A stretch of 37,028 nucleotides of DNA from Saprospiraceae bacterium (GTDB taxonomy: Bacteria > Bacteroidota > Bacteroidia > Chitinophagales > Saprospiraceae). Below are positions 763-36,931 of this stretch, in pieces. The stretch is taken from contig JAYSRS010000377.1 of NCBI GenBank assembly GCA_043720935.1, forward strand, positions 1-37,028, in the 5' to 3' direction. The notes under the pieces are model-generated. The model was not told the origin of the DNA and did not search any database. It was given only the letters and a program-made list of their open reading frames with translations. The number at the start of each line of letters is the position of its first letter. The first letter of the stretch is position 1. Position numbers and translations under genes: made by a program.

Positions 763-789
763 GATTTTAGCACCCCCTCAGTATTTTTG
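760..789 (+). promoter_or_regulatory. Candidate Bacteroidota sigma-A promoter for the 859..3159 receptor gene
   Basis: TTTG at 760-763 and TATTTTTG (TAnnTTTG form) at 782-789, with an 18-nt spacer, about 70 nt upstream of the ATG. The first TA of the -7 box is the last two bases of a CCCCTCAGTA motif copy. Confidence 0.35.
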
Positions 790-858
790 CTCAAAACGGA
801 CGTTTTTCATTACTTTTTCATCTATCGCATCATTCATATCATAAAATTACCTTTCTAA

Positions 859-3159
859 ATGTCACGCATTAAACTCCTAAAAATTGGCGTATTTCTACTG
901 ATGTCAACGGCAGTTTTTGCCCAAAATATCACATTAAGCGGCTATGTCCGCGATGCCAAAAATGCAGAATCGCTGATTGGAGCGACCATTTTTGAAACCA
1001 ACCACAAACTCGGCACGACGACCAACGAATATGGCTATTATTCCCTCACCGTTCCGTTAGCGGATACGATTGGTTTGGTCATTTCTTTTGTCGGATATCA
1101 GGCGCAAGCAAAAAAAATTTCCACTAAAATAAACACCCGTGTTGATGTTGATTTGAACGATAATGCCGCCGAATTAGGCGAAGTCGTGGTGCAAGCAACG
1201 CGCAACGACGACAATGTGCAACGCGCCAAAATGGGCGTTATTGACGTGCCGATGCGGTCAATCAACACGCTGCCCGTCATTGGTGGTGAACGCGATATTT
1301 TAAAAATTATTCAATTGTTGCCCGGTGTTCAAGCGGGGCAGGAGGGAACAACGGGCTATTTTGTGCGCGGCGGCAATCTCGACCAAAATTTGGTTTTATT
1401 GGACGAGGCAACGGTCTATAATCCGAACCATTTATTCGGTTTGTTCAGCACGTTTAATGTCAACGCTATTAATAATGTGAAGTTGATAAAAGGCGGTTTT
1501 CCCGCCCAATTTGGGGGTAGATTAAGCTCGATTTTGGATATTCAGATGAAAGATGGCGACAAAAAGCACTTTCATACTGAGGGGGGTATTGGTTTGCTAT
1601 CCGCTAATATAACGCTGCAAGGCCCGCTTCAAAAAGAAAAATCATCGTTCATTATTTCGGCTCGACGGAGTTATATTGACCTACTTTTAAAACCCTTTAC
1701 ACCCGCCGCACAACAAGGCACAACGTATTATTTGTACGATGTAAACGCCAAATTGAACTATGAAATCGGCAAAAAAGACCACTTATTTTTGAGTATTTTC
1801 AACGGTAAAGACAATGCCGCTTACACGGGCGCGAACAGCTTGAACTATGGTATTGATTTTGGCAACACGGCAGGTACGTTTCGTTGGAATCACCTCTTTG
1901 GCAACAAATTATTTATGAATACATCGGTCGTTTTCAACGATTATCACCTTGGTTTAGGGTCAACGCAAGGGCAATATTACGCCTTGTTGTACACAGCGAT
2001 AAACGATGTGGCGGCAAAAACGGACGTAACTTTTATCCCAAATCCACAGCACGAAATTAAATTTGGCGTGAATTATACCTATCACACCCTCTATCCCGCG
2101 TCGGCTTCCGCCAAAATTCCGAAAAGCGGCAACCGCACAACCGTCAACCGCGACAGTATTCCACGCCGTTATTCCAACGAATTTGCCGCTTATTTTAGCG
2201 ACGAATGGAAAATTAGCGACCCCCTCAGTATAAACGTCGGTTTGCGCGTTCCAACTTTTTTTACCACGACAAAATCTTACACTTTCGTTGAACCCCGCGT
2301 CACGGCTAAATATTCACTTGACAAAATGACTTCGGTAAAGGCTTCTTTTACCCAAATGAATCAGTTTTTACACCTCGTTCCAAGCAGTACCGCGTCGCTG
2401 CCGACCGATATTTGGATTTCGTCAAGTGCGCTCGTCAAGCCGCAAACGAGTACGCAATTTGCGCTCGGCGTCTTCAAAAATTTTCAAGATAACGGCATTG
2501 AGGCAAGCATTGAAGGCTATTACAAGGACATGAAAAACCAAGTTTTGTTCAAAGAAGGCACGCAAGTCATTTTGGCAACCGACCTCGAAAGCGTCCTAAC
2601 TTTCGGAAATGGAACGTCTTACGGATTAGAATTTTTTGTAAAGAAAAACTTTGGCAAACTCACAGGTTGGACGAGTTACACCTTATCAAAAACGACTCAA
2701 ACCTTTGCCGCACTCAACAACGGCAGCCCGTTTCCTTTTACTTACGACCGCCGCCACAACCTCGCTATTGCCGCGACTTACGACCTCACACCCCGTTGGA
2801 CACTCTCGGCAGACTTCGTTTTCACAACGGGCAGTGCCTTTACTTTACCCGCAGGACGTGTTCCCGTTTTTCAAGACGGCTCGTTGTACGATGGCGTTTA
2901 TTACGATTACACAACCCGCAACAACGCCCGTTTGAACAATTATCATCGGCTCGATGTGAGTGCTTCGTACAAAAAAGAGCGCAAGATATTTGGCAGAAAA
3001 TACGAATCTGAATGGGTTTTTGGAGCTTATAATTTGTACAGCCGCTTGAATCCATATTTCGTTTATTTGGCAACCGACCCAATTACAAAAGTACCCGAAG
3101 CAAGGCAAGTGTCTTTGCTGCCTATTATTCCAAGTGTGGCATTTAATTTTAAATTTTAA
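859..3159 (+). CDS. TonB-dependent outer-membrane receptor (CarboxypepD_reg N-domain, plug, beta-barrel)
   Basis: 766-aa ORF with a signal peptide ending AVFAQN and a GYVRD..ESLIGATI carboxypeptidase-regulatory-like domain. It has plug motifs (PGVQ, FVRGG), a long barrel and a terminal aromatic residue (FKF). Confidence 0.9.
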   Translation: MSRIKLLKIGVFLLMSTAVFAQNITLSGYVRDAKNAESLIGATIFETNHKLGTTTNEYGYYSLTVPLADTIGLVISFVGYQAQAKKISTKINTRVDVDLNDNAAELGEVVVQATRNDDNVQRAKMGVIDVPMRSINTLPVIGGERDILKIIQLLPGVQAGQEGTTGYFVRGGNLDQNLVLLDEATVYNPNHLFGLFSTFNVNAINNVKLIKGGFPAQFGGRLSSILDIQMKDGDKKHFHTEGGIGLLSANITLQGPLQKEKSSFIISARRSYIDLLLKPFTPAAQQGTTYYLYDVNAKLNYEIGKKDHLFLSIFNGKDNAAYTGANSLNYGIDFGNTAGTFRWNHLFGNKLFMNTSVVFNDYHLGLGSTQGQYYALLYTAINDVAAKTDVTFIPNPQHEIKFGVNYTYHTLYPASASAKIPKSGNRTTVNRDSIPRRYSNEFAAYFSDEWKISDPLSINVGLRVPTFFTTTKSYTFVEPRVTAKYSLDKMTSVKASFTQMNQFLHLVPSSTASLPTDIWISSSALVKPQTSTQFALGVFKNFQDNGIEASIEGYYKDMKNQVLFKEGTQVILATDLESVLTFGNGTSYGLEFFVKKNFGKLTGWTSYTLSKTTQTFAALNNGSPFPFTYDRRHNLAIAATYDLTPRWTLSADFVFTTGSAFTLPAGRVPVFQDGSLYDGVYYDYTTRNNARLNNYHRLDVSASYKKERKIFGRKYESEWVFGAYNLYSRLNPYFVYLATDPITKVPEARQVSLLPIIPSVAFNFKF

Positions 3160-5214: not shown

Positions 5215-5317
5215 AACTCATTCTAACTCATTGAAAATCAATTTTTTAGTAAAAATACTGAGGGGGTATCTACACTTTGAATTTTTTAAAAAATCATCAA
5301 ACTAAATTTTAAAATCT

Positions 5318-6105: not shown

Positions 6106-6290
6106 TACTGAGGGGGTATCTTATTGCGGCGTAGCTGCAAAATCTCGGTAATACTAACTTTGAGCATGAGTTTTACTATGCGGTGTAACCGCAAAACAGC
6201 GCGTTTAGCGGTTACACCGCAAAGGAAATTGGGCTATCGAGTCGTGTTACCAAGATTTTGCAGCTACGCCGCAATAAGACACCCTTTACT
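6106..6290. mobile_element. Family A MITE-like palindromic element, copy 1
   Basis: Perfect 26-bp terminal inverted repeat CTTATTGCGGCGTAGCTGCAAAATCT (6120-6145) / 6253-6278. Inner 13-bp hairpin GCGGTGTAACCGC...GCGGTTACACCGC. TACTGAGGGG (6106-6115) abuts the left repeat. A second copy is at 27553-27730. Confidence 0.8.
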
Positions 6291-6344: not shown

Positions 6345-8721
6345 ATGCAACGAAAAATACAACGGAAAATACAACTCCTCAATCTACTTTTAACGCTCTG
6401 TTTAAGCACCGCGTTTGCTCAAAACATAACAATTCCAAGCATGAAGACCCCCAAAATGGGATTAACCCTTAATGGCGGCGGCGTAAAAGGCTTGGCGCAC
6501 ATTGGCGTTTTGCGGATGATTGATTCGCTCGACATTCGGATTGATTGCATTTCGGCAACGAGCATGGGCAGCATCGTCGGAGCGATGTACGCGGTGGGTT
6601 ATTCGGGTGACGACATCAAACGCATCGCCCTAAATGACATTGATTGGTCGCGGATGCTCTCTAACGCGCCGCCTCTCAACGAAGTGGCTTTTGAGGAAAA
6701 AGACGAATTTGGTCGCTATACGCTTGAATTGCCGATGACAGGTTGGCGACCTACCGCGCCGCGTGCGTTCATCGAAGGGCAGTACGTTTTGGCACTTTTC
6801 AACTATTATACCCACAATGTTCGCCACATTTCACGTTTTTCAAAGCTGCCAATTCCTTTGCGGCTCATGGGTTCGGACATTCTCAACGGCGGCTCGGTAC
6901 GCTTAGATTCGGGCAGTTTAGCGGTAGCTATGCGGGCATCAATGGCGATTCCTGTGGTGTTTACGCCCTTATTTTGCAACGGATATTTGCTCGTGGACGG
7001 TGGTTTAGATAAAAATTTTGCCGTTGATGAAGCCCTCGACATGGGCGCGACGCAAGTAATTGGCAGCTACACGGGTTTTTCGGGTTTATGACAAAAGTGA
7101 AATATCAAGCCCCGCCAAACTCATCGCTCAAACTTACGCTTTTAGTTCGGTCAAAGAAGCAACGGCGCAAATGAAACGGGCAACGCTCGTCGTTAACCAC
7201 AACGACGCCCTTAAAAAATATTCGCCAACCGATTTTGCTAATTACGCCGATATTATCCGCATCGGCGAAATTGAAGCCCGTAAAATGCTGCCTGAACTCC
7301 AACGCCTTGCCGATGAACAGCACCGACACCCGACCGCCGCAAAACCACAACACCCCGCCGACCCGCAGTTGCCGATAGATAAAATTGATTTTTTGACCAC
7401 GACCGACCAAAATATACCCCCCTCAGTACAAAAGTTTGCGGAGGCTCGTTTGGGACTAAAAGTGGACAGTATTTACACGGCAAACCAAATTCGACAAGCA
7501 ACTAACCGACTTTATGGCAGTCGTTTTTTTGAAAATGTCTATTTGGCTTTCGACAGCACCCGCCTCCGTGTGCATCTCAAAAATGACGACCCTGACCACC
7601 TCAAAGTGGGTTTACACTACGATAGTTACAGCAGCGTCGGTGTGATTGTAAACTACACCAATCGGCATTTAGGCTTGCCAAATAGTCGTTTTGTGGCAAC
7701 TTTGGCGGCTGCCGAACGCTTGAAAGGACGCGCCAACTACCAATTTTATGTAGATAAAAATTTTAGATTTTGGTCAAAAACCTTTTTTAACTACGAAAAT
7801 CAAACGGGCAAAGAGGTTATTGGTCAATACGAGGATTTTCAGAATTACAATGCCGAACGCTACGATTACGGCACGGGCTTGGGCTATTCGAGCAGCGTAA
7901 ATAGCGGTTTTTTCCTTAGTTTTCAACGCGAACACCATCTTTTGCGCCGCAACCGCGCCCTTCGTCTCCTTTTTGACGACGTGCCAATTTACGCCTACAA
8001 CCACGTTTCCAACAGCCTTAATCTCAATTGGACGCGCAATACTTTCAACAACGTTTATTTTCCGACGAAAGGCAGCCTCACGCAATTTGACGTTAGTTGG
8101 CGGTTTCAAAATCGCCTCGAACTCGACATTTTAGGACTCGAAGGGGCGACCGATTCAGTGGCTTTGCGGTTGCTGATTGCCCCAAAAGCGACCGATTTTG
8201 TCCCGTCGCAAGTGGGGCGTTTTTTGTTCCGTCATCAATCCGTGTTACCGATTTCGCCGCATCTTTCGTTGATTATGGGTGCAAATTGGGGCGGACTTTG
8301 GGATGCAAAAGGGCGTGATAGTTTGTATTTTCCGACGGATACGGTAGTTGGTTCGTCTCGCTACGTTTTTCTCAACAACCGTCTTTCCGTCGGCGGGACA
8401 CGGTTGCGCGAAGCCCCGAATCAACTCAATTTCACGGGTTTGTATCCAGGAGAAATAGCTACTTTTTCCAACGTCACCACTTTCAATTTAGCCATTCAAT
8501 ACACGCCGCTTCGCCATTTGTTTTTGACGCCTTCGCTGTCTTTTGGCTTCGCTAATCCACTCGGTTTTCGTCCTTTTAGCGGTTGGCAACGCGCCGATTT
8601 GCATTGGTTTGGTTATGGTGTTCGGTTGAGTTATCAGTCGCCGATTGGACCTTTTGTGCTTGGTTTTGAGCAAAGCAATGACCTTTGGCGGGGGTATTTT
8701 TCGGCGGGTTTCCCGTTTTGA
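6345..8721 (+). pseudogene. PlpD-like patatin phospholipase fused to an Omp85-type beta-barrel (type Vd architecture), split by a +1 frameshift
   Basis: The ATG at 6345 gives a signal peptide (LCLSTAFAQN). Patatin motifs are present: GGGVKG, SMGS, LVDGG. The reading frame changes inside a T5 run (7076-7080); deleting one T joins ..GSYTGF to RVYDKSEISS... The C-terminal barrel ends GFPF. Confidence 0.7.
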
Positions 8722-8741
8722 GTGACCCCCTCAGTATTTTT

Positions 8742-10880
8742 TTATAACAAATTGATTTTCAACGACATATTCACCACACGCCCGTCAATCGGCGCCCACA
8801 AAGCCCTAAAAGCGGGGTTTGTTTTAGTCCCATCGTACAAGGGTTCTAAGCGGCTTTGTCGAAAATCGGCGAGGTTTTCACCATTCAAAACCAAGGCAAA
8901 ACGCTTGAATTTGCGCTCAATCATACCCGCAAAAAACCAATAATTTTGCGCCTTCGTGCCGTCCGATTTGTATTGATTGCCGACCCACGCGTTTTCGACG
9001 CCAAAACGCCATTTGCCTTCAATATCGTAAGCCAAAGTCATGGCGAATTTGTCTTGTGGACTGTATTTGAGATAAGTTGATGCGTTGTTATTGTCAAAGT
9101 TTTGCGCCAACGTATGGTTATATCCCAAATATAATTCGACAGCGTTGTAAGCAAATCGAACGTAAGTATCTGTTCCCAAAGTCTGAACTGAACCGTTGGA
9201 ATTGGCTAAAAAATCCAAATCTTTAACAATTGGTTTATCAATTTTGACGTAGTAAAACGCTTGATTAATCGTCAAACTAACCTTATCGAATAGGAGTGTG
9301 TGCCAATTGCCATCAAAGTTTAAACCCGTTGATTTTTCAGCTTTTGCGCGGTTGTCAACGCTCAAATTGCCGTTTGCGTCGCTAAAAACGTCGGGTGTTC
9401 GGTAGCCACTGCCGCCGCCGACTCGGAGAGACCAATCGTGGGCGGGTTTGAATAAAACGGACAAACGCGGCAAATAAAACACGCCAAAATTATTCGTTTT
9501 ATCGGCTCTAAAACCGCCTTCGACAATCCAACGCGGGTTTGGTTTCCACGTGTTTTGAACAAATGCGCCGTAGGTTTGATAATTAAAATCACCGCTAACT
9601 GATTGATTGACAAAGGATTGTGTGATAAAATTAAGACCGCCAACTAAATCGTTTTTAGTCGTCGTATTCAAAAAAGACAATTCAGAATAACTCGTCGAAA
9701 ACTTGCCTTTGAAGGGCGAAGCCGCCGAAAAATCCGTCGTTCTGTCCAACAAACTCACCGCCGATTTAGCGGCAATAGAGAAGGTTTTTGACACATCATG
9801 GGCGAAATGACCGTTAAATGTGTTGCGTTGCGTCGCATTTTTTTCAAAAAATTGATGCGACGCACTTGCCGCCGACCCCCTCAGTATATCGATGTCTCCG
9901 CCGTCTCTTTGCTCAAAAGTGCCTGACCAACCCGCATTGATTTTCGTTTTTTCGTTCGACCAAAACAAACGCGGATGCAAGAGCAAACCCCGCACTTTTG
10001 GCACATCCGAAAAGCCGTCACCGTTCACGTCAACGGCTTGTTGGAAGGTTGTACCACCAAAAAAAGTAACGCCAAACTGTCCCCATTTCTTTGATAAATA
10101 GGTATTGATATTCGATTCTTTCAACGTGCTTTGGTTCAAAGTTAGCGTCGCTTCGGGTTTATCAGTCGGAGTTTTTGACACCAAATTTATTAGACCACTA
10201 ATCGCGCCGCCGCCGTAAAGCGTTGACACAGAGCCTTTTATGATTTCAACTTGTTTTAAATCCAAGGGCGGGATTTGCAAAATACCCAAGCCGCCCGAAA
10301 AGCCATCGTACAACGGCAAACCGTCGCGCAGCAACTGCGTGTATTTGCCATCCAAGCCTTGCATCCGCACGACTGAACCACCACTCACCGCCGACGTTTG
10401 TTGAATATGAATGACCGACAAATCGCCCAAAAGACTGCCGATATTTGACGGTTTTATCCCGTTTTCTTCCGTCAATTCTTCCAAACCCAAGACTTCCACC
10501 TTTGTCGGCTGGTCCTCGATACGGGCATTTGTCCGCGTTGACGTGACGACCGCTTCGTCTAAATCGGTGGCTTCGGGCGTCATTTTCAAATTAAAATTTT
10601 TCGATACATCAGTAAGCGGTAACGAGAGCGTCAAAGTGTCCGATTTGTAGCCCACGAAGGAATAAGCCAACGACATTGCCCCATTTGAGAGACCCCTCAG
10701 TATCAAGCCGCCGTCGAGGTCGGTAACGCCGCCTTTTGTTGTGCCGACTTGCACGACGGCAACGCCCACAAGCGGCTCACCATTTTTTTCGTCTGTAATT
10801 TTTAAACTAACATCATTTTGCCCCAATAAATGGGCTGAATTTAGGAACAACAACGCGATAATTAATTGTGATATTTTCAT
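8742..10880 (-). CDS. TonB-dependent outer-membrane receptor
   Basis: 712-aa ORF with a signal peptide, a CarboxypepD_reg-like N-domain (PLVGVAVVQVGTTKGGVTDLDG), a plug (RMQGLDGKYTQLLRDGLP) and a barrel. Confidence 0.9.
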   Translation of the reverse strand: MKISQLIIALLFLNSAHLLGQNDVSLKITDEKNGEPLVGVAVVQVGTTKGGVTDLDGGLILRGLSNGAMSLAYSFVGYKSDTLTLSLPLTDVSKNFNLKMTPEATDLDEAVVTSTRTNARIEDQPTKVEVLGLEELTEENGIKPSNIGSLLGDLSVIHIQQTSAVSGGSVVRMQGLDGKYTQLLRDGLPLYDGFSGGLGILQIPPLDLKQVEIIKGSVSTLYGGGAISGLINLVSKTPTDKPEATLTLNQSTLKESNINTYLSKKWGQFGVTFFGGTTFQQAVDVNGDGFSDVPKVRGLLLHPRLFWSNEKTKINAGWSGTFEQRDGGDIDILRGSAASASHQFFEKNATQRNTFNGHFAHDVSKTFSIAAKSAVSLLDRTTDFSAASPFKGKFSTSYSELSFLNTTTKNDLVGGLNFITQSFVNQSVSGDFNYQTYGAFVQNTWKPNPRWIVEGGFRADKTNNFGVFYLPRLSVLFKPAHDWSLRVGGGSGYRTPDVFSDANGNLSVDNRAKAEKSTGLNFDGNWHTLLFDKVSLTINQAFYYVKIDKPIVKDLDFLANSNGSVQTLGTDTYVRFAYNAVELYLGYNHTLAQNFDNNNASTYLKYSPQDKFAMTLAYDIEGKWRFGVENAWVGNQYKSDGTKAQNYWFFAGMIERKFKRFALVLNGENLADFRQSRLEPLYDGTKTNPAFRALWAPIDGRVVNMSLKINLL

Positions 10881-11476: not shown

Positions 11477-12763
11477 TCAAGTCGCCGCCGTTTTGAAATC
11501 CACCGAAAACCGATGCGCGTTTGCCTCAAACCGATAGCCGATGCCAAAACCGTATTGTTGCCCGATGCGCTCCACTAATGACAGGCCCAAACCGACCCCC
11601 TCAGTATCTACGCCCTTTTTGAAGCGTTTAAAAATTTGCTCGGCGTCTAAGGCAGTCGATTTGCCCGTATTGCTCACAACTAATTGATTATCAGTTAGTT
11701 TTATGTGGATTTGACCTTTCAAAATATTGTGTCGAATGGCGTTTGACAAGAGATTGGAGACTAAAATTTCGGCTAAAACGGGGTGAATACTGAGGGGGTC
11801 GGTTTTTGATAACTCGGTCGTGACGGTCAATTGTTTTTTCTCAATAATGGGGGCGAGTAAATCCAAACGTTCGTTTATGAGGTGCGCTAAGTCTATTTTT
11901 TCGGTTTTCTGAAACTGTTGATTGTCAATTTTAGTCATCAACAACAAGGTTTTCGATAGCCGCGACAAACGCCCCACAACCCGAAGCGAAGCCGCAATGT
12001 CATCAACGGCAACGGCGGGTAAATCGGAATTTTGCAGAAGATTGTCGAGCCGATTTTGCAGCAAAGCAAGGGGCGTTTGCAGCTCGTGCGAGGCATTGTC
12101 CGTAAATTCTTTGAGCGTTTGGTAGTCCAATCTTAGGCGGTCGGTCATGCGTTTTAGGTGCCGATTGAGGTTGTTAAATTCATCAATTGTCGTGGGCGCA
12201 AAACTTAAAGAATCCGTTTCTGTAAGTTGTAAACGGTTGATTTTCAACAAAGTATCGTTAAAAGGCGACCATACTGTTTGCGCCAAACGTTGATTTGTCC
12301 AAAAAGTCAACACCAACAAAATGGCCCACAAGACAACGGCTGAACCCGCCGCCACGCCAATTAAATCTTCATCCTCAAGGCTCGATTCGTTCAGTTTAAC
12401 CTCATAAAGTTGCCCTTTCACGCCGAGCGTAAAAGCCAATTGTCGGTAAGGTTCTAACTCACCCGATTCGCTCGGATTGCCGATAAAGGTGTCGCGGAGG
12501 GTTTGATACTGAGGGGTGTTGACAGGCAGCGTCTGCACCTCAAAAACGAAGTCTCTTGTCGAGAAAAACGAAGGTAAACTGTCGTTTTTTCCTACAAATT
12601 GCCGAATTTCGGCGTTGATTACCCGTAAATTTTCATCGGCTTGACGGGTGATAAGTTGCCGAATACCGATGTAAAAAAGCACCGCGCCCACCACAAAAAT
12701 AGCCGCCGATTGCAAAGCATACAGTCGGTTTGTTTTGGTAAGAAGTTTCATCTGTCTGTCCAT
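11477..12763 (-). CDS. Sensor histidine kinase
   Basis: 428-aa ORF with two TM segments, an H-box (SHELQTPL), an N-box (LLSNAIRHN) and a G2 box (GVGLGLSLV). Confidence 0.9.
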   Translation of the reverse strand: MDRQMKLLTKTNRLYALQSAAIFVVGAVLFYIGIRQLITRQADENLRVINAEIRQFVGKNDSLPSFFSTRDFVFEVQTLPVNTPQYQTLRDTFIGNPSESGELEPYRQLAFTLGVKGQLYEVKLNESSLEDEDLIGVAAGSAVVLWAILLVLTFWTNQRLAQTVWSPFNDTLLKINRLQLTETDSLSFAPTTIDEFNNLNRHLKRMTDRLRLDYQTLKEFTDNASHELQTPLALLQNRLDNLLQNSDLPAVAVDDIAASLRVVGRLSRLSKTLLLMTKIDNQQFQKTEKIDLAHLINERLDLLAPIIEKKQLTVTTELSKTDPLSIHPVLAEILVSNLLSNAIRHNILKGQIHIKLTDNQLVVSNTGKSTALDAEQIFKRFKKGVDTEGVGLGLSLVERIGQQYGFGIGYRFEANAHRFSVDFKTAAT

Positions 12764-20208: not shown

Positions 20209-20229
20209 CCCCTCAGTATTTTAGCTAAT

Positions 20230-23198: not shown

Positions 23199-23258
23199 GC
23201 TTTTGACTATTAAAATTGAGATAAAATAAGCAAAATACTGAGGGGGGTGTTTTTGAAA

Positions 23259-24277: not shown

Positions 24278-24439
24278 TTAATAATGGATTTTTTATTTTA
24301 AGAATATTGTTCTAATAATCCCCTTCACGCAGGTTTTTTGATTTTGGTTACACGGGTTTTGAAAGAAACTGTCTTAATAATTTGTTAAGACAAAAAAGGA
24401 TAACATTACTGAGGGGTATCAACGGGGTCAATTCGTGTA

Positions 24440-24595: not shown

Positions 24596-24885
24596 ATCAA
24601 CCACTTTGAGTGGTCAACTTTTTTAGGGGTGATTCCTACTGAATGACAAAGGAAAACGGGCAAAATTTTCAAGAATTTTAAAACAACTATCCATAATATC
24701 AATTATTTTATACGAAATGTTCGCGTGTAGATACACACGGCCGTGTGTATCTACGGTTGACACATACATTGTAAATTAAGGGAAATCAAAGCGTTATTTG
24801 AACTGAATTATCCTAAAATTTAGGCCTTTTTCAGTACCCTCCTTGTGTTACGCGTGGCTTTTTTAGTCGAAATACTGAGGGGGTC

Positions 24886-26052
24886 TTATTCAAACAAATT
24901 GGACAAATTGGCATAACTCACCACTTCAAAACCATCTTTCAAGGGATAATTTTCCGAAACGGGCGCAACGATAACATTCCGACGCGTTTTGAGGTCAACC
25001 GATGCTGTCCAAAGGCTTTTGGTGATAACAGGCGCGGAAGTGTGCTTGATTTCGACCAATATTTCGGGAATACCCGCTTTTACGATAACCAAATCGGCTT
25101 CTGTGCCGTCTTGGGTTCGGTAAAAATAAAGCTCATGTCGAGGTGGCAGCATCGTCGCTATTTCTTGAAAAATATAGCCTTCCCACGACGCCCCCAACGA
25201 AGGATGTCCTTGCAATTGCTCGAAACTGCCGATGGCCAAAAGCGCGTGCAAAATACCCGTATCTCGAATGTATATTTTGGGCGTTTTGACAAGCCGCTTC
25301 GATATGTTCGTGTACCAAGGCTGCAACTGCCGAATGAGATACGAGGCTTCAAAAAAATCAATATACCGCCGAATTGTCGGGGCCGTTACGCCCAATGAAT
25401 TACCAAAAGATTGGAGATTCAACAAATTGCCGTTCCAATGCGCCAACATCGTCCAAAGCCGACGCGTCAACAAAGGATTTGCATTCAAACCCAACATCGG
25501 CAAATCCCGTTCAAGATAAGTTTGGATAAAATTTTCTCGCCAATCCATACTGTTTTGGTCGTCTTTTGCCAATAAACTTTCGGGAAAACCGCCACGCAAC
25601 CAATGCGTTTTGTAAGTCGCCAAATCCGCCGTTTCAAGGTGCGACAAAGGCGATAATTCAAAATAAGCAATCCGCCCTGCCAACGATTCGGAGGTGTCCC
25701 GTATCAAATCGGGCGAGGCTGAACCCAACAAAATGAACCGATTTGGGATGCGGTGTTGGTCAATTAGGCCCCTCAGTATCGGAAACAAATTCGGCACGCG
25801 TTGTATCTCATCCAAGATAACTGTCTGTTCTTGGAGTGGTTCAAGAAACAAAAACGGGTCGCTCAATTTGTTAAGGTCGCGCGGATTTTCTAAATCAAGG
25901 TACAGCGTCGGACGCGTCCACGCTGCCGCAATGTGTTGCGCTAAGGACGTTTTACCAACTTGTCGTGGGCCCACAATCGCCACCGCAGGGAACTGATGCA
26001 ACAGCCGTAAAATGTCCGTTTCTGCCGTCCGTGAAATATAAGGTCTTATCAT
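24886..26052 (-). CDS. AAA-type ATPase with a DUF4143-like C-terminal domain
   Basis: Start moved to MIRPYISR (ATG at 26052). Walker A is GPRQVGKTSLA and Walker B-like is VILDEIQ. The C-terminal part is typical of the AAA_14/DUF4143 family (from memory). Confidence 0.75.
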   Translation of the reverse strand: MIRPYISRTAETDILRLLHQFPAVAIVGPRQVGKTSLAQHIAAAWTRPTLYLDLENPRDLNKLSDPFLFLEPLQEQTVILDEIQRVPNLFPILRGLIDQHRIPNRFILLGSASPDLIRDTSESLAGRIAYFELSPLSHLETADLATYKTHWLRGGFPESLLAKDDQNSMDWRENFIQTYLERDLPMLGLNANPLLTRRLWTMLAHWNGNLLNLQSFGNSLGVTAPTIRRYIDFFEASYLIRQLQPWYTNISKRLVKTPKIYIRDTGILHALLAIGSFEQLQGHPSLGASWEGYIFQEIATMLPPRHELYFYRTQDGTEADLVIVKAGIPEILVEIKHTSAPVITKSLWTASVDLKTRRNVIVAPVSENYPLKDGFEVVSYANLSNLFE

Positions 26053-26132
26053 ATTTTTTATTTTTTCCCTGCAAATCAAAAACAAAATTTTCGATTTACA
26101 GGGAAAAAAATGAAATTTAATACTTGAGGGGG

Positions 26133-26969
26133 CTATTCTGCGCCGTCTGTTGGCAATTCTTTGGCTGATTCGCTTCCTTTCAGCCCCAAGAAATTATCTT
26201 TGGATACGACTTTCAAACCTGATTCTTCTTCATAATTGTTGCGGGCTTTACCGCCAATTCTGCCGCCGATTTGCGCCGCGTCGTGGCTATCCGCAAAACC
26301 TTGAGCATTGTCTCTTAGCGTTATTTGACGCGTGGCCTCTTCACCAAGAGCCGTAAAAATCAGTTCTAAGGGTGTCATGTGGTCGCGGAGATTTTGACGG
26401 TCTAAACCCTTAATTTCTTTGTGTTCAGTCGGCGTTACGCCAAATGTTCCTTTGGCGATGGTTGCCGTCAAAATGGCGTATTCTTGATTTTCTTTGACAT
26501 CCCGCGCTTTCCATTCATCGGTTAGTTCTTTGCGCGTTTCGATGGTTTGAACACGTCGCCCAATCCATTCTTCGGTATAACCTTTGGCACGGTAGAGTTC
26601 CGTCTGTCGAGCGGTCAACAATTCAGGGTTTTCGGTTTCATCAATCGCCTGTTTGCCGAGCGATGCCAACCAAAGTTTTAGCGGTTCGGCCTTGGGCGAC
26701 GGAACAGCCATGAGGATTCTAAACACCCCCTCAGTATTCGAGCAGTCTGACGGGCGTTCCTTCCCATCAAGCCCTACTAATTTCAACTTTTCGCAAATTG
26801 CGAAAAGTTGAGGTTCTTTTTTCTTTATGCCGTTCCAATACCGCGATGGTTGTGGACTATCCGTCAAAACGCCAATAACATCAACGACCGAAAAATACCA
26901 TTGTTCGTTGTACCAAATCTTGCGGATTCTTTCGCCCTCAAAAGGGCTTAATGCGTTGTCTTTCTCCAT
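26133..26969 (-). CDS. Bro-N domain / DinD-like DNA-damage-inducible family protein
   Basis: 278-aa ORF. The N-terminus (FEGERIRKIWYNEQWYFSVVDVIGVL) has a Bro-N pattern. The C-terminal half (NLRDHMTPLELIFTALGEEAT) resembles E. coli DinD as I remember it. Confidence 0.6.
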   Translation of the reverse strand: MEKDNALSPFEGERIRKIWYNEQWYFSVVDVIGVLTDSPQPSRYWNGIKKKEPQLFAICEKLKLVGLDGKERPSDCSNTEGVFRILMAVPSPKAEPLKLWLASLGKQAIDETENPELLTARQTELYRAKGYTEEWIGRRVQTIETRKELTDEWKARDVKENQEYAILTATIAKGTFGVTPTEHKEIKGLDRQNLRDHMTPLELIFTALGEEATRQITLRDNAQGFADSHDAAQIGGRIGGKARNNYEEESGLKVVSKDNFLGLKGSESAKELPTDGAE

Positions 26970-27552: not shown

Positions 27553-27730
27553 CTGTCTTGTTGCGGCGTAGCTGCAAAATCTTGGTAATAAAATCCCTAA
27601 ATACCCGATTTCAAATGCGGTGTAACCGCTAAACCGCTTGTTTTGCGGTTACACCGCATAGAAAAAAGCGTTTTTACGTTAATCGTTATCAAGATTTTGC
27701 AGCTACGCCGCAATAAGACACCCCTCAGTA
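27553..27730. mobile_element. Family A MITE-like palindromic element, copy 2
   Basis: It has the same terminal repeats (27557-27587 / 27688-27717) and the same inner GCGGTGTAACCGC hairpin as 6106-6290. CCCCTCAGTA (27721-27730) abuts the right repeat at the same 3-nt offset. Confidence 0.8.
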
Positions 27731-27852: not shown

Positions 27853-29241
27853 TTAAAACGCATCGGGGCGCAGTTTCTTAACCGAATTGTAGAAAGCTCC
27901 TTTAAAACTCGGATTTTGAAGGTTCTCACTGAGCGATTTTAAGGGATTGTATGAACCCGAAAACATGGAATATTGGATTTGTTGAAGCGCAGTTTTAAGC
28001 AATTCTTCATCCGTTACGACCAAGGCGAGAACAATTTGTTCTTCGTGCTTGTACTGTTCTTTCTTTTTTTCCTCTGCAAGTAGCATGGCTTGGTTCTGTT
28101 CCTTTTGCTGAACACGTGTCTGTTCCTTAACCACCGTTTCTTTCTTCTTTTTCTCCGTAATTTTAAAATTACCTCGGACGGCTTCAACAAAAAAACCTGC
28201 TGCCGATTCCTTAATTTTACCCTCATTAATGGCACTTTCTGTAACTTTTACAGCTTCTCGAATCACCCCCTCAGTATAATCCTCAACAAGTGCCATAAAC
28301 ATTTTGAGACTCACGCCAAAGCGGGTCACGACAACGGGGGATAAATCGACTGTCAATTTTTCTTTCGCTTGTTGCACCTGTTCGTCCGTTATTTCAGTCA
28401 CGATATTTCCGACAATTACTGTCTTTTCAGTCGTTTTTACGGTTTCAATCGGCACTATCTGCAGCGTTTGACGTTTAGGTTCTGCCCGCAATTCGCGCAA
28501 AAGAGGTGGTTTTTCTTCTGTTTTACGACTGAAAAAGAAATGAAGTGCCGTTACTTTTCGTCCTTCCTTCACTTTTTCATAACGACTAATTTTAATATCC
28601 GTGTATTTATTAATCTCCTTGACGGCAGGTTTGATAACCCACTGATGAAAATTGGAAAAATCGGGATATTCTTTATCATATTCCAAGATTCTCTTCATGT
28701 ATTCGATGTCCAAAACCCGTCCTTCAAGCGATTCATATTGCTTCAATAATTCATATATTCGTACCGATTGCGCGCTCAATCGAGAGACATTACTAAGGTC
28801 ATAAGCCGTAAAATTCTTTTGCAATTGCAGCAGCAAAGGCTTCATTTCAGGCTCAATTGTCACGTCAATATACTCCTGATTTTGAATTCCGTCGCCCGCT
28901 TGCCCTTCTTTCAGATAGTCCGTACTCCTGATGATGTGGTACTCTTTTTCGCGCGTAAATCCACCTTCTTGATAGTTGACATGGAGTGTTTTTCGCATCA
29001 AATTTTTCACACCTGCCCGCAGTAAATCGTATGATTGGTGCGATTTTATGCCGAAAATATCAATCACATCGCTGTACCAAATCCTGTATGTTTGCAAATC
29101 CGCATCCTCCTTCCGTATGCACGAGAGCAAGGACAGAAACATGCGGGTTTCCCAAGTGTCGAATCTGTACCGTGCCTCAATGAGTTGATTCGATTTTTTT
29201 ATGATGCGGATGCCTTTATTTCTTTTTGAACTTGCACTCAT
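27853..29241 (-). CDS. Plasmid replication initiator, Rep_3 (RepB/RepA iteron-binding) family, with a roughly 200-aa C-terminal extension
   Basis: 462-aa ORF with N-terminal Rep_3 signatures (KSNQLIEARYRFDTWETRMFLSLLS, SVRIYELLKQY). An iteron array lies directly upstream. Confidence 0.85.
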   Translation of the reverse strand: MSASSKRNKGIRIIKKSNQLIEARYRFDTWETRMFLSLLSCIRKEDADLQTYRIWYSDVIDIFGIKSHQSYDLLRAGVKNLMRKTLHVNYQEGGFTREKEYHIIRSTDYLKEGQAGDGIQNQEYIDVTIEPEMKPLLLQLQKNFTAYDLSNVSRLSAQSVRIYELLKQYESLEGRVLDIEYMKRILEYDKEYPDFSNFHQWVIKPAVKEINKYTDIKISRYEKVKEGRKVTALHFFFSRKTEEKPPLLRELRAEPKRQTLQIVPIETVKTTEKTVIVGNIVTEITDEQVQQAKEKLTVDLSPVVVTRFGVSLKMFMALVEDYTEGVIREAVKVTESAINEGKIKESAAGFFVEAVRGNFKITEKKKKETVVKEQTRVQQKEQNQAMLLAEEKKKEQYKHEEQIVLALVVTDEELLKTALQQIQYSMFSGSYNPLKSLSENLQNPSFKGAFYNSVKKLRPDAF

Positions 29242-29534: not shown

Positions 29535-29540
29535 AGTTAA

Positions 29541-29575: not shown

Positions 29576-29971
29576 GTCTAAAACAATAAAAGATTTAAAA
29601 ACAATTTAAAAAGATTTAAACAACAACAAAAGCGTTTGATGTTGTTTTTAATAAAAATTGTAGAATAGAGCAGGAGCAAGGTGTTGAACTCTGTTTGTTT
29701 TTATAATAGTACTTATAATAACGTCGAATAAACGCCTTTTTAATCAAAAATAAGCGGCTAATAATTAAAATTAAGATACTTACGCCTTTTTTTTAGAAAG
29801 GGGCTTAAAATCAAAATTATGAAGCAATTATGAAACAACTAAAAATAGACCCCCTCAGTATGAATCTCTAATTTGATGTCCCAATTTTCTAATTTTTCAG
29901 TTAAGTCAAGATTTCTACAATTTTCCAATACAAAACAGAGACAATTTGACATACGTGCAATTTATGTATGA

Positions 29972-31956: not shown

Positions 31957-34395
31957 ATGAAAAAATTTGTATTTATTTTCTTTCTTTTAGTTTTTCTATT
32001 ACCATTGTCCAACGCTGCTAACGGTGAAGTTGGAACATTAACAGGCACAATTACAGCTAACGCAAACCAACCCATAGCGGGCGCAAATATCGTTGTGAAA
32101 GGTACTGTCAGAGGGGTTGCCACTGATGAAAATGGTAAATACATCATCAAAAATATAGAAGTTGGCACTTATATTCTTGTCATTTCAGGTGTCGGCTTCC
32201 AACCGCTTGAAAAAAAGGTCGAAATACTGAGGGGGGTAATAACAACTTTTGACTGCTCTCTTGAAGAAAGTAGTTTAGCCTTAGAGACGCTTCATGTTAT
32301 TTTTAATCGCGGTGTTGGTGGTACAGGTCACTTAGCAGAAATAGGGGACTACGCCATTAATGCGGCTAAAAAAAATGAGGTCGTTAAATTAGATAAAATT
32401 GATGCTAATTTAGCCATGAATAATTCACGTCAAATATACGGTCGCATACCGGGTATTCAGATTTGGGAGAGTGATGGTTCAGGTATCCAACCTGGTTTAG
32501 CTTCTCGTGGTTTAAGTCCGAATCGTTCGTGGGAGTTCAACGTGCGTATGAACGGATATGATATTACTCCCGACCCAATGGGCTACCCTGAAGCATATTA
32601 TAATCCGCCGATGGAAGTGGTTGATAGAATAGAAATCGTTAGAGGCGCTTCTTCATTGCAATATGGCTCTCAATTCGGCGGTCTTTTGAATTATGTTTTA
32701 AGAAAACCTGATATATCAAAGCGTTTTGTTTGTGAAAGTCAAAATACAGTAGGCAATAATGGCTTATTCAGTACTTTTAATTATATAGGTGGTACGGAGG
32801 GCAAATTAGGATATGCTGCCTATTATCAAAAACGAGTAGGTGATGGTTGGCGCAATAACAATAAATTTAATACTGACCATTTCCATTTTGAAACCAATTA
32901 TGCGTTCAGTAATAAATTTAAAATGGGTGTTGAGTTCACCTATATGACCTATATCAGCCAACAACCGGGCGGCTTAACTGATAGCCTTTTCAATATAGAT
33001 GCACGTCAAAGTCTGCGTTCTCGCAACTGGTTTAATACACCGTGGGTGATACCTTCCCTCAATGCGGAATATGTTTTTAATGAAAACACTCGTTTGAATT
33101 TCAAAACATTTGGGACGATTGGCGAACGCAATAGTATTGGTTTTGTCAATGCCACTACCACTAACGACCCACTCAATTCAAAACGTCAAATTGACCGTGA
33201 TTTGTATAAAAACATAGGTTCAGAATTGCGTTTGATGCACAGTTATACTTGGATTAACAAAAAGCATACTCTGGCAACGGGTGTTCGTTATTTCAATGGC
33301 AATACGGAACGTTTGCAAAGAGGCTTGGGTGATACTTTAGCGACTTTCAATTTAGATCTAAAAGATAAGTATATCAATGATTTACGTTTTAAAAATATCA
33401 ATATGGCGGCTTTTGTAGAAAACATTTTTTATTTCTCAAACCGTTTTTTGATGACGGCAGGCGCACGTTATGAACATATAGCTACTGATGCCCAAGGTCG
33501 TTTGGGTTTTAAATCCGACGGGTCAGAGAATCTCATTGCTAATCAAAAAAGCAGCCGTAATTTCTTTTTGTTAGGGACAGGCTTTGAATTTCACGCTACT
33601 AAACAAACAGAAATTTATACCAATTTTTCACAAGCCTATCGCCCCGTTTTATTTTCTGATTTAACCCCTCCTGCAACAACTGATGTGATAGATGCGAATT
33701 TGAAAGATGCAAGAGGTTGGAATTTTGATATTGGTTATAGAGGAAAAATAAGCACTTGGTTGAATTTTGACGTTGATTATTTTTATTTAAACTATAATGA
33801 CCGTATTGGTATAATTAGCTTGTTAGATGCGAACAACAAACCCTATCAGTTTCGTACCAATTTAGGTCAATCTATCTCAAAGGGTTTTGAGGGTTATATT
33901 GAAATTGACCCTCTATCAGCCATTAATCCTAAGTCACCATTAGGAAATTTGAGTTTGTTTGCGTCTATAAGTTTTATTGATGCCCAATATCAAGATTTCA
34001 AAACGCAAACAGTATCAAACGGCAAACTTGTAGAAGGCAACTTAAACGGCAATACTGTGGAAAATGCCCCTCAGTATATACATCGTTTCGGAGTGACTTA
34101 CGCCAAAAAAGGGTTTTCTTTGACTTGGCAATTAAGTAGTGTTGGAGAAGCCTTCGCTGACGCTATCAACACAGTTAAACCCAACGCTGCGGCTACATCA
34201 GGTTTGATACCCGCTTATCAAGTGCAAGACTTATCCGCCAGTTTCAAGTTTTTGAAGCATTACAATGTTAAGGCGGGTATCAATAATCTTACAGATGTTC
34301 GTTATTTTACACGGCGTTCTGGGGGCTATCCGGGACCGGGTCTTTTGCCTGCTGATGGACGCACATGGTATGTTTCAGTAGGCGTTAAATTCTAA
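31957..34395 (+). CDS. TonB-dependent outer-membrane receptor
   Basis: 812-aa ORF with a signal peptide, a CarboxypepD_reg-like domain (GTITANANQPIAGANIVVKGT..TDENGKY), a plug (IEIVRGASSLQYG) and a barrel ending VSVGVKF. Confidence 0.9.
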   Translation: MKKFVFIFFLLVFLLPLSNAANGEVGTLTGTITANANQPIAGANIVVKGTVRGVATDENGKYIIKNIEVGTYILVISGVGFQPLEKKVEILRGVITTFDCSLEESSLALETLHVIFNRGVGGTGHLAEIGDYAINAAKKNEVVKLDKIDANLAMNNSRQIYGRIPGIQIWESDGSGIQPGLASRGLSPNRSWEFNVRMNGYDITPDPMGYPEAYYNPPMEVVDRIEIVRGASSLQYGSQFGGLLNYVLRKPDISKRFVCESQNTVGNNGLFSTFNYIGGTEGKLGYAAYYQKRVGDGWRNNNKFNTDHFHFETNYAFSNKFKMGVEFTYMTYISQQPGGLTDSLFNIDARQSLRSRNWFNTPWVIPSLNAEYVFNENTRLNFKTFGTIGERNSIGFVNATTTNDPLNSKRQIDRDLYKNIGSELRLMHSYTWINKKHTLATGVRYFNGNTERLQRGLGDTLATFNLDLKDKYINDLRFKNINMAAFVENIFYFSNRFLMTAGARYEHIATDAQGRLGFKSDGSENLIANQKSSRNFFLLGTGFEFHATKQTEIYTNFSQAYRPVLFSDLTPPATTDVIDANLKDARGWNFDIGYRGKISTWLNFDVDYFYLNYNDRIGIISLLDANNKPYQFRTNLGQSISKGFEGYIEIDPLSAINPKSPLGNLSLFASISFIDAQYQDFKTQTVSNGKLVEGNLNGNTVENAPQYIHRFGVTYAKKGFSLTWQLSSVGEAFADAINTVKPNAAATSGLIPAYQVQDLSASFKFLKHYNVKAGINNLTDVRYFTRRSGGYPGPGLLPADGRTWYVSVGVKF

Positions 34396-35541: not shown

Positions 35542-35554
35542 AATTTTTTACAAA

Positions 35555-36931
35555 ATGACTGAAAAAGACTTCTCCAAACGCTTGCAAGACAAGCTATCTG
35601 CCTTTCAACCCGACGCGTCGCACCGCGCCGAAGATTGGGATTTGCTGAATCAGCAATTAGACGCGGTTTTGCCGACGGCCAAAAAACGGCGGCGATTGTT
35701 GTGGTTGCCGTGGGCATTAGGGGCGGTTTTGGTCGTTTCAAACGGGTTGTGGTGGTTCAATCAAGGCAATAATGCGGACAACGTAAGGGTAGAACAGCGT
35801 TTGGATAAATTAGAAAATCGGGTGTCAATGGTTGAAAATAAAGACTTAGAAGTGAGTGAAAATCTGAAAACCCCACCTAATTTAAGTTCAAAGCCTCAAA
35901 ATACTGAGGGGGGGCAAAATAAATTTCAATTGTCGAATTTAGGATTTCGGCGGCAGTCCGTAGCTCAAAATTCATCATTAAAACCTCAAAATACTGAGGG
36001 GGTAGGAAATAGATTTCAGATTTCAGATTTCAGATTTCAAGTGTCAGAATCAACTCAAAATTCATCTTCATATTCTCAAAATTCGATAATTACACCGCTT
36101 GATTTAAGTAAAAATAAGGGTTTGGTAACGGAAAACGATAGCCAAGCGGCGATAAATAACAACCTTCAAAACATTGGTAATCAATCAGTTGTAACCAATA
36201 ACGATGCACAAGATAAACAAAATAACTTTCAAGCTATTGATTTTTTAAAACCTGTTTTAAAGCCTTTAATTGTTGCTGAAAACGGCGTTACACCATTGAT
36301 TAAAGCGGCTCAATTCACCCCTTTGTCGAAGCGTTTTAGTTTTCAATTGGGCCTAAAAACGGAATTGATTACACCCCGCAGTACGGGCGTGACATCCGAG
36401 GCGGGTTATGGCGTAGGCGTTCAAGGCGGCGTCGGATTTGGTAAACATTGGCGCGTTGTCGGCGGCCTTGGTATGGTGTATTTGAATTATACGGCGACCG
36501 ACAAAAACGCCCTATTGGGTTCACCCGAAGGACTGCCTAACGTCGTCAATACGCCGAACACGACGACGCAAATGCAGATGAACAATCAAAGTTGTATGCG
36601 TTACGAGTTGAGTGCGCGGTATGCTTTGCAGCCTTCTTGGCGGCTAAAACCTTTCGTCGGTGTGGGCGTGAGTGGTATGCTTATGAGTGCTTATCAGATG
36701 GATTTACAAGTGCAAAATATGCAAAATATGACGGTGCATCAAGCCAATATTCACGTTAATCCTCAAACGCACCGCCAACAAATGTACCGATTGAGTACGG
36801 GTTTTGAGGTGGCTTTGTCGCGTCGCGTAAGTTGGGGTTTGGAGGCGTATTATCAACGCTTATTCAAGAAAACAACCGCCGTTGCGCCCGATTTTATGGG
36901 TCTGCAAGCGGAGATTTTTTATATTTTTTGA
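35555..36931 (+). CDS. ECF-sigma partner: N-terminal region, one TM helix, repeat-rich linker, C-terminal OMP-like beta-barrel
   Basis: 458-aa ORF, 14 nt after the sigma gene. TM helix LLWLPWALGAVLVVSNGLWW. It contains a 30-aa tandem duplication. The C-terminal beta-strand pattern ends EIFYIF. It is a paralog of 14825..16375. Confidence 0.65.
   Translation: MTEKDFSKRLQDKLSAFQPDASHRAEDWDLLNQQLDAVLPTAKKRRRLLWLPWALGAVLVVSNGLWWFNQGNNADNVRVEQRLDKLENRVSMVENKDLEVSENLKTPPNLSSKPQNTEGGQNKFQLSNLGFRRQSVAQNSSLKPQNTEGVGNRFQISDFRFQVSESTQNSSSYSQNSIITPLDLSKNKGLVTENDSQAAINNNLQNIGNQSVVTNNDAQDKQNNFQAIDFLKPVLKPLIVAENGVTPLIKAAQFTPLSKRFSFQLGLKTELITPRSTGVTSEAGYGVGVQGGVGFGKHWRVVGGLGMVYLNYTATDKNALLGSPEGLPNVVNTPNTTTQMQMNNQSCMRYELSARYALQPSWRLKPFVGVGVSGMLMSAYQMDLQVQNMQNMTVHQANIHVNPQTHRQQMYRLSTGFEVALSRRVSWGLEAYYQRLFKKTTAVAPDFMGLQAEIFYIF
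36011..36038 (+). repeat. Heptanucleotide repeat (AGATTTC) x4 inside the CDS
   Basis: Read directly: agatttc agatttc agatttc agatttc. The unit length is not a multiple of 3. Confidence 0.9.

Follow-up and report, generated by a model that had tools for sequence, protein, structure and literature searches.

A hyper-abundant 10-bp word with phased A/T flanks as a candidate uptake or self-recognition tag in Saprospiraceae

The 37,028-bp contig JAYSRS010000377.1 of a Saprospiraceae bacterium (assembly GCA_043720935.1), analysed at its full length and referred to here as the window, carries the 10-bp word TACTGAGGGG about once per kb. The signal is real and striking, is apparently undescribed and is lineage-wide. 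The word is proposed to be the core of a composite recognition signal in double-stranded DNA, in which three to four A/T tracts phased at about 10.3 bp are followed by aAAA-TACTGAGGGG-G-t. An original prediction, made from the letters of the window, had compared the word with the DNA uptake sequences (DUS) of Neisseriaceae and the uptake signal sequences (USS) of Pasteurellaceae. By this analogy, a USS-type uptake or self-recognition tag, kept by uptake bias and recombination, is given an even chance of being the correct explanation.

The word was present 37 times without mismatch in the window, 19 times on the forward strand and 18 times on the reverse strand, and every coordinate and strand that had been predicted for these copies was exact. 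None of 100 dinucleotide-preserving shuffles of the window yielded a single copy. The counts expected under Markov models of order 1 to 5, fitted to the window after masking of the copies, were 0.006-0.02; the word is therefore more than 1,500-fold in excess, and its claimed over-representation held against compositional expectation. The reverse complement, CCCCTCAGTA, differs from the word, which is thus asymmetric and not a palindrome of the HIP1 type. At position -1 an A was found in 28 of the 37 copies, as had been counted before. The G at position +10 is also conserved, with 28 copies rather than 27, and the T said to follow the G-run usually was somewhat overstated (17 of 37 copies at +11). 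Two of the three one-off variants listed originally are one-mismatch substitutions (GACTGAGGGG), and the third, at 26121, is a one-base insertion; one more substitution variant, TACTGCGGGG, was added to the list. A search of the window against Rfam returned no RNA family.

The distribution of the word was determined by scanning GTDB representatives (one genome per species) for exact matches to the 14-mer AATACTGAGGGGGT. At least 113 stretches matched. About 100 of the matches listed came from at least 20 different metagenome-assembled genomes (MAGs) named 'Saprospiraceae bacterium', and the matches were almost exclusively from Saprospiraceae; the few from other phyla contained the single ascertained copy only. 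The isolate names of most carrier MAGs have the prefix GFS, OTE, VAR or GL, which we take to be a glacier-fed-stream series; a further carrier bears the name of Salar de Ascotan, and another the name 'new MAG-358'. In 103 carrier blocks (634 kb), 517 copies of TACTGAGGGG were counted, with 0.5-1.1 copies per kb in each MAG. Ascertainment was corrected by using non-ascertained copies and protein-anchored loci. The copies outside the ascertaining 14-mer numbered 370 (0.58 per kb), and the protein-anchored loci had densities of 0.93 (locus L115), 0.64, 1.00 and 0.51 per kb, so that the word was recovered lineage-wide at about 1 per kb in related genomes. No copy was found in the nearest relatives outside the clade (L116, L119 and L327; 20-22 kb each), whose identity is 62-65% for DsbD or 72% for a conserved membrane protein. 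Over 50 kb, the plasmid pHALHY03 of Haliscomenobacter hydrossis contained neither the word nor an alternative hyper-abundant one. Among the 20 species representatives the shared genes of carrier MAGs are only 66-85% identical at the DNA level, yet the core is the same; it is therefore stable over deep divergence. No variant of core or flank separated the 20 MAGs into dialects. Such sharing at the family level, together with absence from neighbouring lineages, is what is seen with uptake sequences. A metagenome scan returned mainly single chance matches and few additional clade contigs.

The core is sharp: in the 103 blocks the 517 exact copies compare with 86 for all 30 one-mismatch variants summed. 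Flank alignment revealed no shared sequence beyond -4..+12, so that the copies do not lie inside a longer conserved repeat. The description of a free-standing word was thus right for flank sequence but not for flank composition, since A/T tracts recur on the 5' side at intervals of about 10.3 bp over four to five helical turns. Around 186 intergenic copies, A+T content on this A-rich side peaked at positions -2, -11, -21, -32 and -42 (about 98, 90, 80, 77 and 76%) and fell to 43, 50, 55 and 62% at -7, -17, -26 and -37. Weaker peaks were present at +16, +26 and +36. The best-fit period was 10.3 bp, with four to five tracts. The same phasing was recovered around coding copies (n = 363), around phage copies (n = 93) and when the window was taken by itself. 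As a control, sequence aligned on AAATAC where the word was absent was flat (58-69% A+T). Because the phased tracts occur in all classes of copies and not in the control, the feature is taken to be a composite of about 55 bp, with a total of about 25 bits, 21 of which are in the core. Because the flanks are phased with the duplex, recognition as double-stranded DNA is favoured. A core with helically phased A/T tracts on one side is the architecture of USS.

Copies were spaced more evenly than expected by chance. The coefficient of variation (CV) of the gaps was 0.73, compared with 0.95 in simulations (z = -6.1); for the window alone it was 0.64 (p = 0.002). Gaps shorter than 200 bp were depleted 2.6-fold (32 observed vs 83 expected), and there was a surplus at 600-1000 bp. 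Even spacing of this kind is characteristic of uptake sequences.

Genes in the loci were called as crude longest-ORF (open reading frame) approximations. On this basis, 66% of the copies in carrier loci lie inside genes, and density was 2.6-fold higher between genes (1.69 per kb in non-coding vs 0.65 per kb in coding DNA). For the window, the split of 23 genic and 14 intergenic copies given originally becomes either 23/14 or 24/13, according to how two doubtful gene starts are read. Sense and antisense copies were almost equal in number (183 and 182), and all five stop-free frames were used: T-E-G (133 copies), P-S-V (75), P-L-S (75), L-R-G (50) and P-Q-Y (32). Both observations are as predicted from the analogy with DUS and USS. 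Intergenic copies showed no preference with respect to the direction of the flanking genes (54, 51, 27 and 25 copies in the four configurations); a promoter, terminator or RNA element is therefore ruled out as a general explanation. A promoter role was considered for the copy at 774, which by eye overlaps a TAnnTTTG-like -7 box, and was rejected in view of this lack of orientation preference among intergenic copies.

Comparison of orthologues at the codon level indicated that copies arise by substitution and not by insertion of a mobile repeat, with zero indels. At one site of the dsbD gene, the window and L115 read ATT ACT GAG GGG TGG (ITEGW), and the motif-free relatives ATC GAC GAA GGT TGG (IDEGW) or ATA GAA AAA GGC TGG (IEKGW). 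At a second site, the window has AAA CCT TTG AGC CTT (KPLSL; KPLSLL) where L115 has ACC CCC CTC AGT ATG (TPLSM; TPLSML): here synonymous changes produced the core and replacements produced the flanks. An amino-acid permease site reads TTTACTGAGGGG, TTTACTGAGAGG and TCTATTGGAGGG in three carriers. Some sites, chiefly intergenic ones, are kept together with their flanks between genomes that are 68-92% identical, and others are private. These codon comparisons show a DNA-level pressure on the word that is strong enough to alter amino acids. Because copies were made in place without indels, a mobile element is excluded as their source.

In two scans of IMG/VR most matches were single chance copies, but about 10 contigs carried the word at 0.5-1.1 per kb. 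These motif-rich contigs encode terminase, portal, head (capsid) protease, head-tail adaptor, baseplate hub and endolysin proteins. Orientation of the word in phages was often uniform over several kb and was not tied to transcription. In IMGVR_UViG_3300037882_004998 (L129, L152 and L286), 11 of 12 copies are on the reverse strand in two blocks and four of five on the forward strand in the third, a flip that occurs even though all genes point in the same direction. Temperate phages of Pasteurellaceae, including IMG/VR assemblies, gather USS to host-like levels, and large, probably lytic phages do not (PMC6776037). On another phage contig rich in the motif (L165:10225-11628), a DNA methyltransferase is joined to a ParB-like domain (PHROG 498/620); an anti-restriction or self-marking function is possible for this protein.

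The closest counterpart of this signal is the Pasteurellaceae USS. In both, a sharp core of 9-10 bp has phased A/T tracts on one side, copies are evenly spread at about one per kb in both orientations, and genic copies use several frames with accommodation of amino acids and codons. In both, the core is common to a family-level clade, and close pairs are rare or without extra benefit (PMC7811141); the core accumulates in phages of Pasteurellaceae (PMC6776037) and apparently also in those of the present clade. The phased tracts, which would make bendable flanks of a 'self' tag, the even spacing and the accumulation in phages are USS-like traits that go beyond the original prediction. USS differ in occurring in Proteobacteria and not in Bacteroidota, and in having two phased tracts, compared with four to five for the word. 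Overlapping inverted terminator pairs are very few for the word, and it has a weak kb-scale clustering of orientation that is not known of USS. The USS cores AAGTGCGGT (Hin-type) and ACAAGCGGT (Apl-type) are unrelated to TACTGAGGGG. An uptake preference is established for USS and is proposed for the word, which at the level of sequence is USS-like in every testable respect, with a longer phased flank and in a different phylum. With Neisseriaceae DUS, the word shares its form (asymmetric, 10-12 bp), its frequency of about one per kb in many species of one family, its intergenic enrichment and a density that could be used to spot foreign or mobile DNA. The DUS core GCCGTCTGAA (12-mer AT-DUS and dialects) is a different sequence, DUS have dialects whereas none were seen among the 20 MAGs, and copies paired as terminators are rare for the word, unlike DUS. 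A phased A/T flank is not known to us from DUS. The receptor of DUS is the minor pilin ComP, and a regular-expression screen of the sampled clade DNA yielded no pilin signature. The proposed relation to USS and DUS is therefore one of convergence, i.e. the word would be a functional analogue and not a member of either family by sequence.

A USS-type reading is suggested by the combination of a sharp core, an even density of about 1 per kb, the use of frames and strands, intergenic enrichment, origin by substitution, clade limitation, accumulation in mobile elements and phased tracts. By analogy, we infer that uptake is the reader of the tag, and likewise each step of the following mechanism. 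An outer-membrane or surface DNA receptor of the competence machinery would bind the G-rich core, and the one-sided A/T tracts, being rigid or bent, would ease bending or kinking of the duplex into the uptake pore. Fragments bearing the tag would be taken up preferentially and then recombined into the genome, so that new or better copies arising by point mutation would be over-transmitted (molecular drive). Copies would build up to about one per approximately 1 kb wherever coding constraints permit, and long-resident plasmids and temperate phages would gain the tag likewise or be selected for carrying it. USS themselves are spaced at about 1,000 bp and combine a core with rigid or bent AT-tracts, which are thought to help the DNA kink as it enters the uptake pore (PMC7811141). 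Bacteroidota can be naturally competent in the absence of type IV pili (PMC8459023). The Bacteroidota competence set comprises ComEC, ComF, DprA, a helix-hairpin-helix (HhH) protein and a CarboxypepD_reg beta-barrel with a DUF5689/DUF5017 surface protein (PMC8459023, PMC7965970), and in Riemerella the CarboxypepD_reg beta-barrel is essential for transformation (PMC8459023). Riemerella columbina favours its own DNA, and the single k-mer search reported among competent Bacteroidota found only A-rich low-complexity words (PMC7965970, PMC8459023). In a literature search, the 10-mer and its complement were found only as PCR primers in unrelated papers, and no earlier account was found of the word, nor of an uptake signal in Saprospiraceae or other Bacteroidota.

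The sequence-level predictions derived from DUS and USS agreed with the data at every testable point. Several observations weigh against an uptake tag. The claimed absence of strand bias holds for totals (19/18 in the window and 276/282 across loci) but not for neighbouring copies, which share their orientation in 57% of cases, above chance. Such clustering is not known to us as a trait of USS or DUS. Long runs on one strand occur in some loci, with nine of nine copies on the forward strand in L324 and six of six in the orthologous host region of L062. Transcription direction, shared gene and GC skew each account for the runs partly or not at all; the excess of same-orientation neighbours is found mostly in pairs with an intergenic copy. 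Among about 550 copies, only seven close inverted pairs (20-43 bp apart) could form hairpins of the kind made by terminator pairs of USS and DUS. In a crude regular-expression screen of 634 kb of clade DNA, no signature of ComEC, DprA, ComEA or a pilus was found. A 'secretin-like' match in the screen proved to be an amino-acid permease, and a neighbouring ORF with a weak match to DUF4131 (ComEC N-terminal) is a conserved 240-aa membrane protein and not ComEC; this search also supplied protein-anchored orthologous loci. No integrase was detected in the motif-rich phage contigs, which are partial, by phmmer with a Saprospiraceae integrase, nor among the top 25 families listed in a PHROGs batch scan; a host-like density in lytic phages would conflict with uptake drive. 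All carriers are uncultured MAGs, and the motif itself served to ascertain most of the host loci, with the window, L115 and L324-L326 as exceptions. Finally, four to five phased tracts, compared with two in USS, could equally mean wrapping by an intracellular protein.

That last explanation, in which the word is the site of an abundant clade-specific DNA-bending or DNA-wrapping protein inside the cell, is possible but was judged unlikely. Such a protein might act as a nucleoid organizer, or its sites might be a self-identity mark that spares DNA from a nuclease or silencing, with sites individually selected about every 1 kb on chromosome, plasmid and phage. The four to five phased A/T tracts, which extend over about 45 bp next to a sharp core, suggest a curved or wrapped duplex. 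Even spacing with exclusion of neighbours below 200 bp, host-like density on a plasmid-type replicon (even within a Rep3 gene) and in phage structural modules, and orientation runs that hint at local organization would also fit. Against it, no nucleoid or self-marking system known to us uses thousands of asymmetric 10-13-bp words, the sister lineages have neither copies nor an alternative hyper-abundant word, which would be odd for core architecture, and all the features in question are found in, or are compatible with, USS (PMC7811141, PMC6776037). A more specific form, a new class of identity or architecture site, is somewhat more doubtful: a clade-specific protein would bind the G-rich core, wrap the tracts and label each stretch of about 1 kb as 'self', either to be compacted or to be spared by a nuclease or silencer, and mobile elements could persist only by copying this label.

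Sequence-biased repair or gene conversion, by which near-matches are turned into the word without any cellular reader, was considered improbable. It would account for the origin by point substitution in place, for the strong depletion of one-mismatch variants relative to exact copies and for the presence of the word on all replicons of the cell and on phages. The precedent is cyanobacterial HIP1 (GCGATCGC), which is likewise a hyper-abundant short word of genes and spacers, spread by nucleotide substitution, lineage-specific and without proven function. HIP1 is palindromic, spans 8 bp and has been linked to methyltransferase sites, whereas the word is asymmetric, longer (10-13 bp), evenly spaced and flanked by phased A/T tracts. 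A short-patch process is not expected to make such tracts 10-45 bp away, and it leaves the even spacing and the exclusion of neighbours below 200 bp unexplained. Signals read by DNA-translocating machines, i.e. Chi (RecBCD/AddAB) and the polar sequences KOPS and SRS (FtsK/SpoIIIE), resemble the word in being oriented, G-rich and over-represented oligomers. Known signals of these types are 5-8 nt long, rarer and clearly co-oriented with replication. A Chi-like role, in which an AddAB/RecBCD-type helicase-nuclease reads the word from a DNA end and switches from degradation to recombination, so that self DNA is protected, has a very low probability. It has on its side the G-rich, oriented word, the weak excess of same-orientation neighbours, a weak correlation of orientation with local GC skew (r = 0.25) and the near-uniform orientation in some phage segments. 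However, Chi is read as single-stranded DNA, for which phased tracts in a duplex should be irrelevant, and a 10-mer at 1 per kb is well above Chi of Escherichia coli (about 1 per 4.5 kb). Orientation was fitted with a two-state block model on stretches of 8-37 kb, which gave an equivalent strand skew of p = 0.625 (95% confidence interval 0.555-0.675, i.e. at most about 0.68); the fit lost 13 log-likelihood units at p = 0.75 and 59 at p = 0.85. Polarity of the KOPS type, which exceeds 80% toward dif, is therefore excluded and a Chi-type skew is unlikely. The near parity of strands in the window, with about 15 switches of orientation in 37 kb, and the phage contig that flips orientation among co-directional genes also disagree with a Chi-like role. 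There remains next to no probability for a miniature mobile or repetitive extragenic palindromic (REP)-like repeat or for an FtsK/SpoIIIE-orienting polar sequence, both refuted at the testable level. Dispersal at high copy number is common to them and the word, and the G-rich core loosely resembles GGGNAGGG and GAGAAGGG. REP elements and miniature inverted-repeat transposable elements are longer, usually palindromic blocks inserted between genes, whereas the word shares no flank sequence beyond its immediate borders, needs no inverted-repeat structure and lies for two thirds of its copies in genes, in compatible frames and with an indel-free origin.

The genes of the window are typical of Bacteroidota: they encode CarboxypepD_reg-TonB receptors, proteins with type IX secretion system (T9SS) sorting tails, extracytoplasmic function (ECF) sigma factors, DsbD and ApbE. 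The top homologues of DsbD are proteins of Saprospiraceae or Lewinellaceae MAGs (identity up to 73%). Three outer-membrane receptors of the CarboxypepD_reg-TonB type (859-3159, 8742-10880 and 31957-34395) belong to a kind that is generic in Bacteroidota, and a link to the motif is not implied; one of them has a DUF4249 partner (3134-4081). A low-GC segment (26-34 kb) includes a plasmid-type replicon module (26133-31045; GC 35-39%) with a BRO-N/KilA-N-like gene, a Rep3 initiator, iterons and ParA. The gene order KilA-N - Rep - ParA is common to the window and pHALHY03, and because of this module the window probably derives from a plasmid. No terminal overlap was found in the contig, which is thus not a closed circle as assembled. 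Density of TACTGAGGGG was 0.63 per kb in the replicon module and 1.1 per kb elsewhere in the window.

Other repeats were noted in the window. Palindromic AACTTGnnnCAAGTT units form a second small family (14784, 14802, 21139, 21408, 23258 and 23822). Several consist of a hairpin followed by a T-run and resemble terminators, three are situated 10-60 bp 3' of a copy of the word, and one similar unit is also present in L087. The replicon module contains the tandem repeats AATACATACAT (4.7 copies; 27381-27437), TGTACGTATTT (2.8 copies; 29972-30002) and TAACATTTAAAAT (4.8 copies; 31629-31690). In the outer membrane protein (OMP) gene at the right end, the paired PQNTEG copies are followed by four copies of a 7-bp tandem repeat, AGATTTC (35902-36039 in all). 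At the end of the contig the 11-bp unit GAAAATAGCTT is repeated 8.5 times without a mismatch (36936-37028), and the assembly probably broke there. Two other carriers, L324 and L325, form a mosaic over 10 kb, with 77% identity over CBS-permease genes and 87-98% over the adjoining 4 kb, which suggests recent homologous exchange and is compatible with frequent recombination.

Table 1 Copies and variants of the word and components of the replicon module in the window, and close inverted pairs of the word in other loci
Feature	Position	Strand	Context
Core copy	774..783	-	Intergenic; 76 bp upstream of TonB-type receptor gene 859-3159
Core copy	1575..1584	+	Receptor gene 859-3159(+), sense, T-E-G
Core copy	2221..2230	-	Gene 859-3159(+), antisense, P-L-S
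Core copy	5256..5265	+	Intergenic, 4377-5141 / 5318-6061
Core copy	6106..6115	+	Intergenic; DUF347 gene ends 45 bp before
Core copy	7419..7428	-	Omp85-like gene 7060-8721(+), antisense, P-S-V
Core copy	8727..8736	-	Intergenic; convergent genes each 6 bp away
Core copy	9877..9886	-	TonB-type receptor 8742-10880(-), sense, (I)L-R-G
Core copy	10693..10702	-	Receptor 8742-10880(-), sense, (I)L-R-G
Core copy	11597..11606	-	Histidine kinase 11477-12763(-), sense, T-E-G
Core copy	11788..11797	+	Histidine kinase 11477-12763(-), antisense, P-L-S
Core copy	12507..12516	+	Histidine kinase 11477-12763(-), antisense, P-Q-Y
Core copy	13354..13363	-	Response regulator 12748-13476(-), sense, T-E-G
Core copy	13703..13712	-	PepSY-like gene 13667-14215(+), antisense
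Core copy	14847..14856	-	Gene 14825-16375(-), sense, L-R-G
Core copy	15323..15332	+	Gene 14825-16375(-), antisense, P-S-V
Core copy	16117..16126	+	Gene 14825-16375(-), antisense, P-L-S
Core copy	17015..17024	+	Intergenic, sigma factor / DsbD
Core copy	17181..17190	+	Intergenic; 40 bp past DsbD stop
Core copy	18765..18774	+	DsbD 17230-19266(-), antisense, P-L-S; window-private (absent from L115, L116, L119)
Core copy	19093..19102	-	DsbD 17230-19266(-), sense, I-T-E-G-W; common to L115
Core copy	19599..19608	+	ApbE 19282-20208(-), antisense, P-L-S
Core copy	20209..20218	-	Intergenic; abuts ApbE start
Core copy	21107..21116	+	Just upstream of T9SS-tail gene (20230-21060, Logan gene call); palindromic AACTTG...CAAGTT repeat follows
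Core copy	22873..22882	+	Intergenic
Core copy	23236..23245	+	Intergenic; then palindromic repeat
Core copy	24407..24416	+	Intergenic
Core copy	24873..24882	+	Intergenic; 4 bp past stop of 24886-26085(-)
Core copy	25769..25778	-	AAA_14/DUF4143 gene 24886-26085(-), sense, L-R-G
Core copy	26727..26736	-	BRO-N gene 26133-26969(-), sense, T-E-G
Core copy	27721..27730	-	Intergenic; 123 bp past Rep3 stop
Core copy	28267..28276	-	Plasmid Rep3 initiator gene 27853-29241(-), sense, T-E-G
Core copy	29851..29860	-	Intergenic; iterons on one side, ParA on the other
Core copy	32225..32234	+	TonB-type receptor 31957-34395(+), sense, (I)L-R-G
Core copy	34067..34076	-	Receptor 31957-34395(+), antisense, P-Q-Y
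Core copy	35902..35911	+	Beta-barrel OMP gene 35555-36931(+), sense, PQNTEG
Core copy	35992..36001	+	OMP gene 35555-36931(+), 90 bp downstream of 35902 copy, sense, PQNTEG
Variant GACTGAGGGG, one mismatch	16464..16473	-	
Variant GACTGAGGGG, one mismatch	22357..22366	+	
Variant TACTGCGGGG, one mismatch	36374..36383	-	
Variant TACTtGAGGGG, one-base insertion	26121..26131	+	
BRO-N/KilA-N-like gene	26133-26969	-	Replicon module
Rep3 initiator	27853-29241	-	48.6% identity to Rep of Haliscomenobacter hydrossis plasmid pHALHY03
Iterons, five of 21 bp	29435-29539		Replicon module
ParA	30371-31045	-	Replicon module
Inverted pair	L030 3295-3337		
Inverted pair	L039 6796-6844		
Inverted pair	L070 59-111		
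Inverted pair	L072 251-291		
Inverted pair	L078 6290-6333		
Inverted pair	L097 102-131		
Inverted pair	L101 7457-7490		

Whatever its function, the word is a near-perfect barcode of the clade, by which contigs, plasmids and phages can be assigned in metagenomes. As far as we know, only two families, both proteobacterial, have established sequence-specific signals for DNA uptake. If the word is an uptake tag, it would represent a third independent origin of such signals, in a new phylum and in at least 20 uncultured Saprospiraceae species. This would open the questions of whether uptake tags evolve repeatedly by molecular drive, of which reader serves in place of a pilus and of the extent to which transformation shapes the genomes of biofilm communities in cold streams. 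Should the word not be an uptake tag, it would be a genome-wide protein-binding or self-marking site of an unfamiliar kind, which would be more surprising still.

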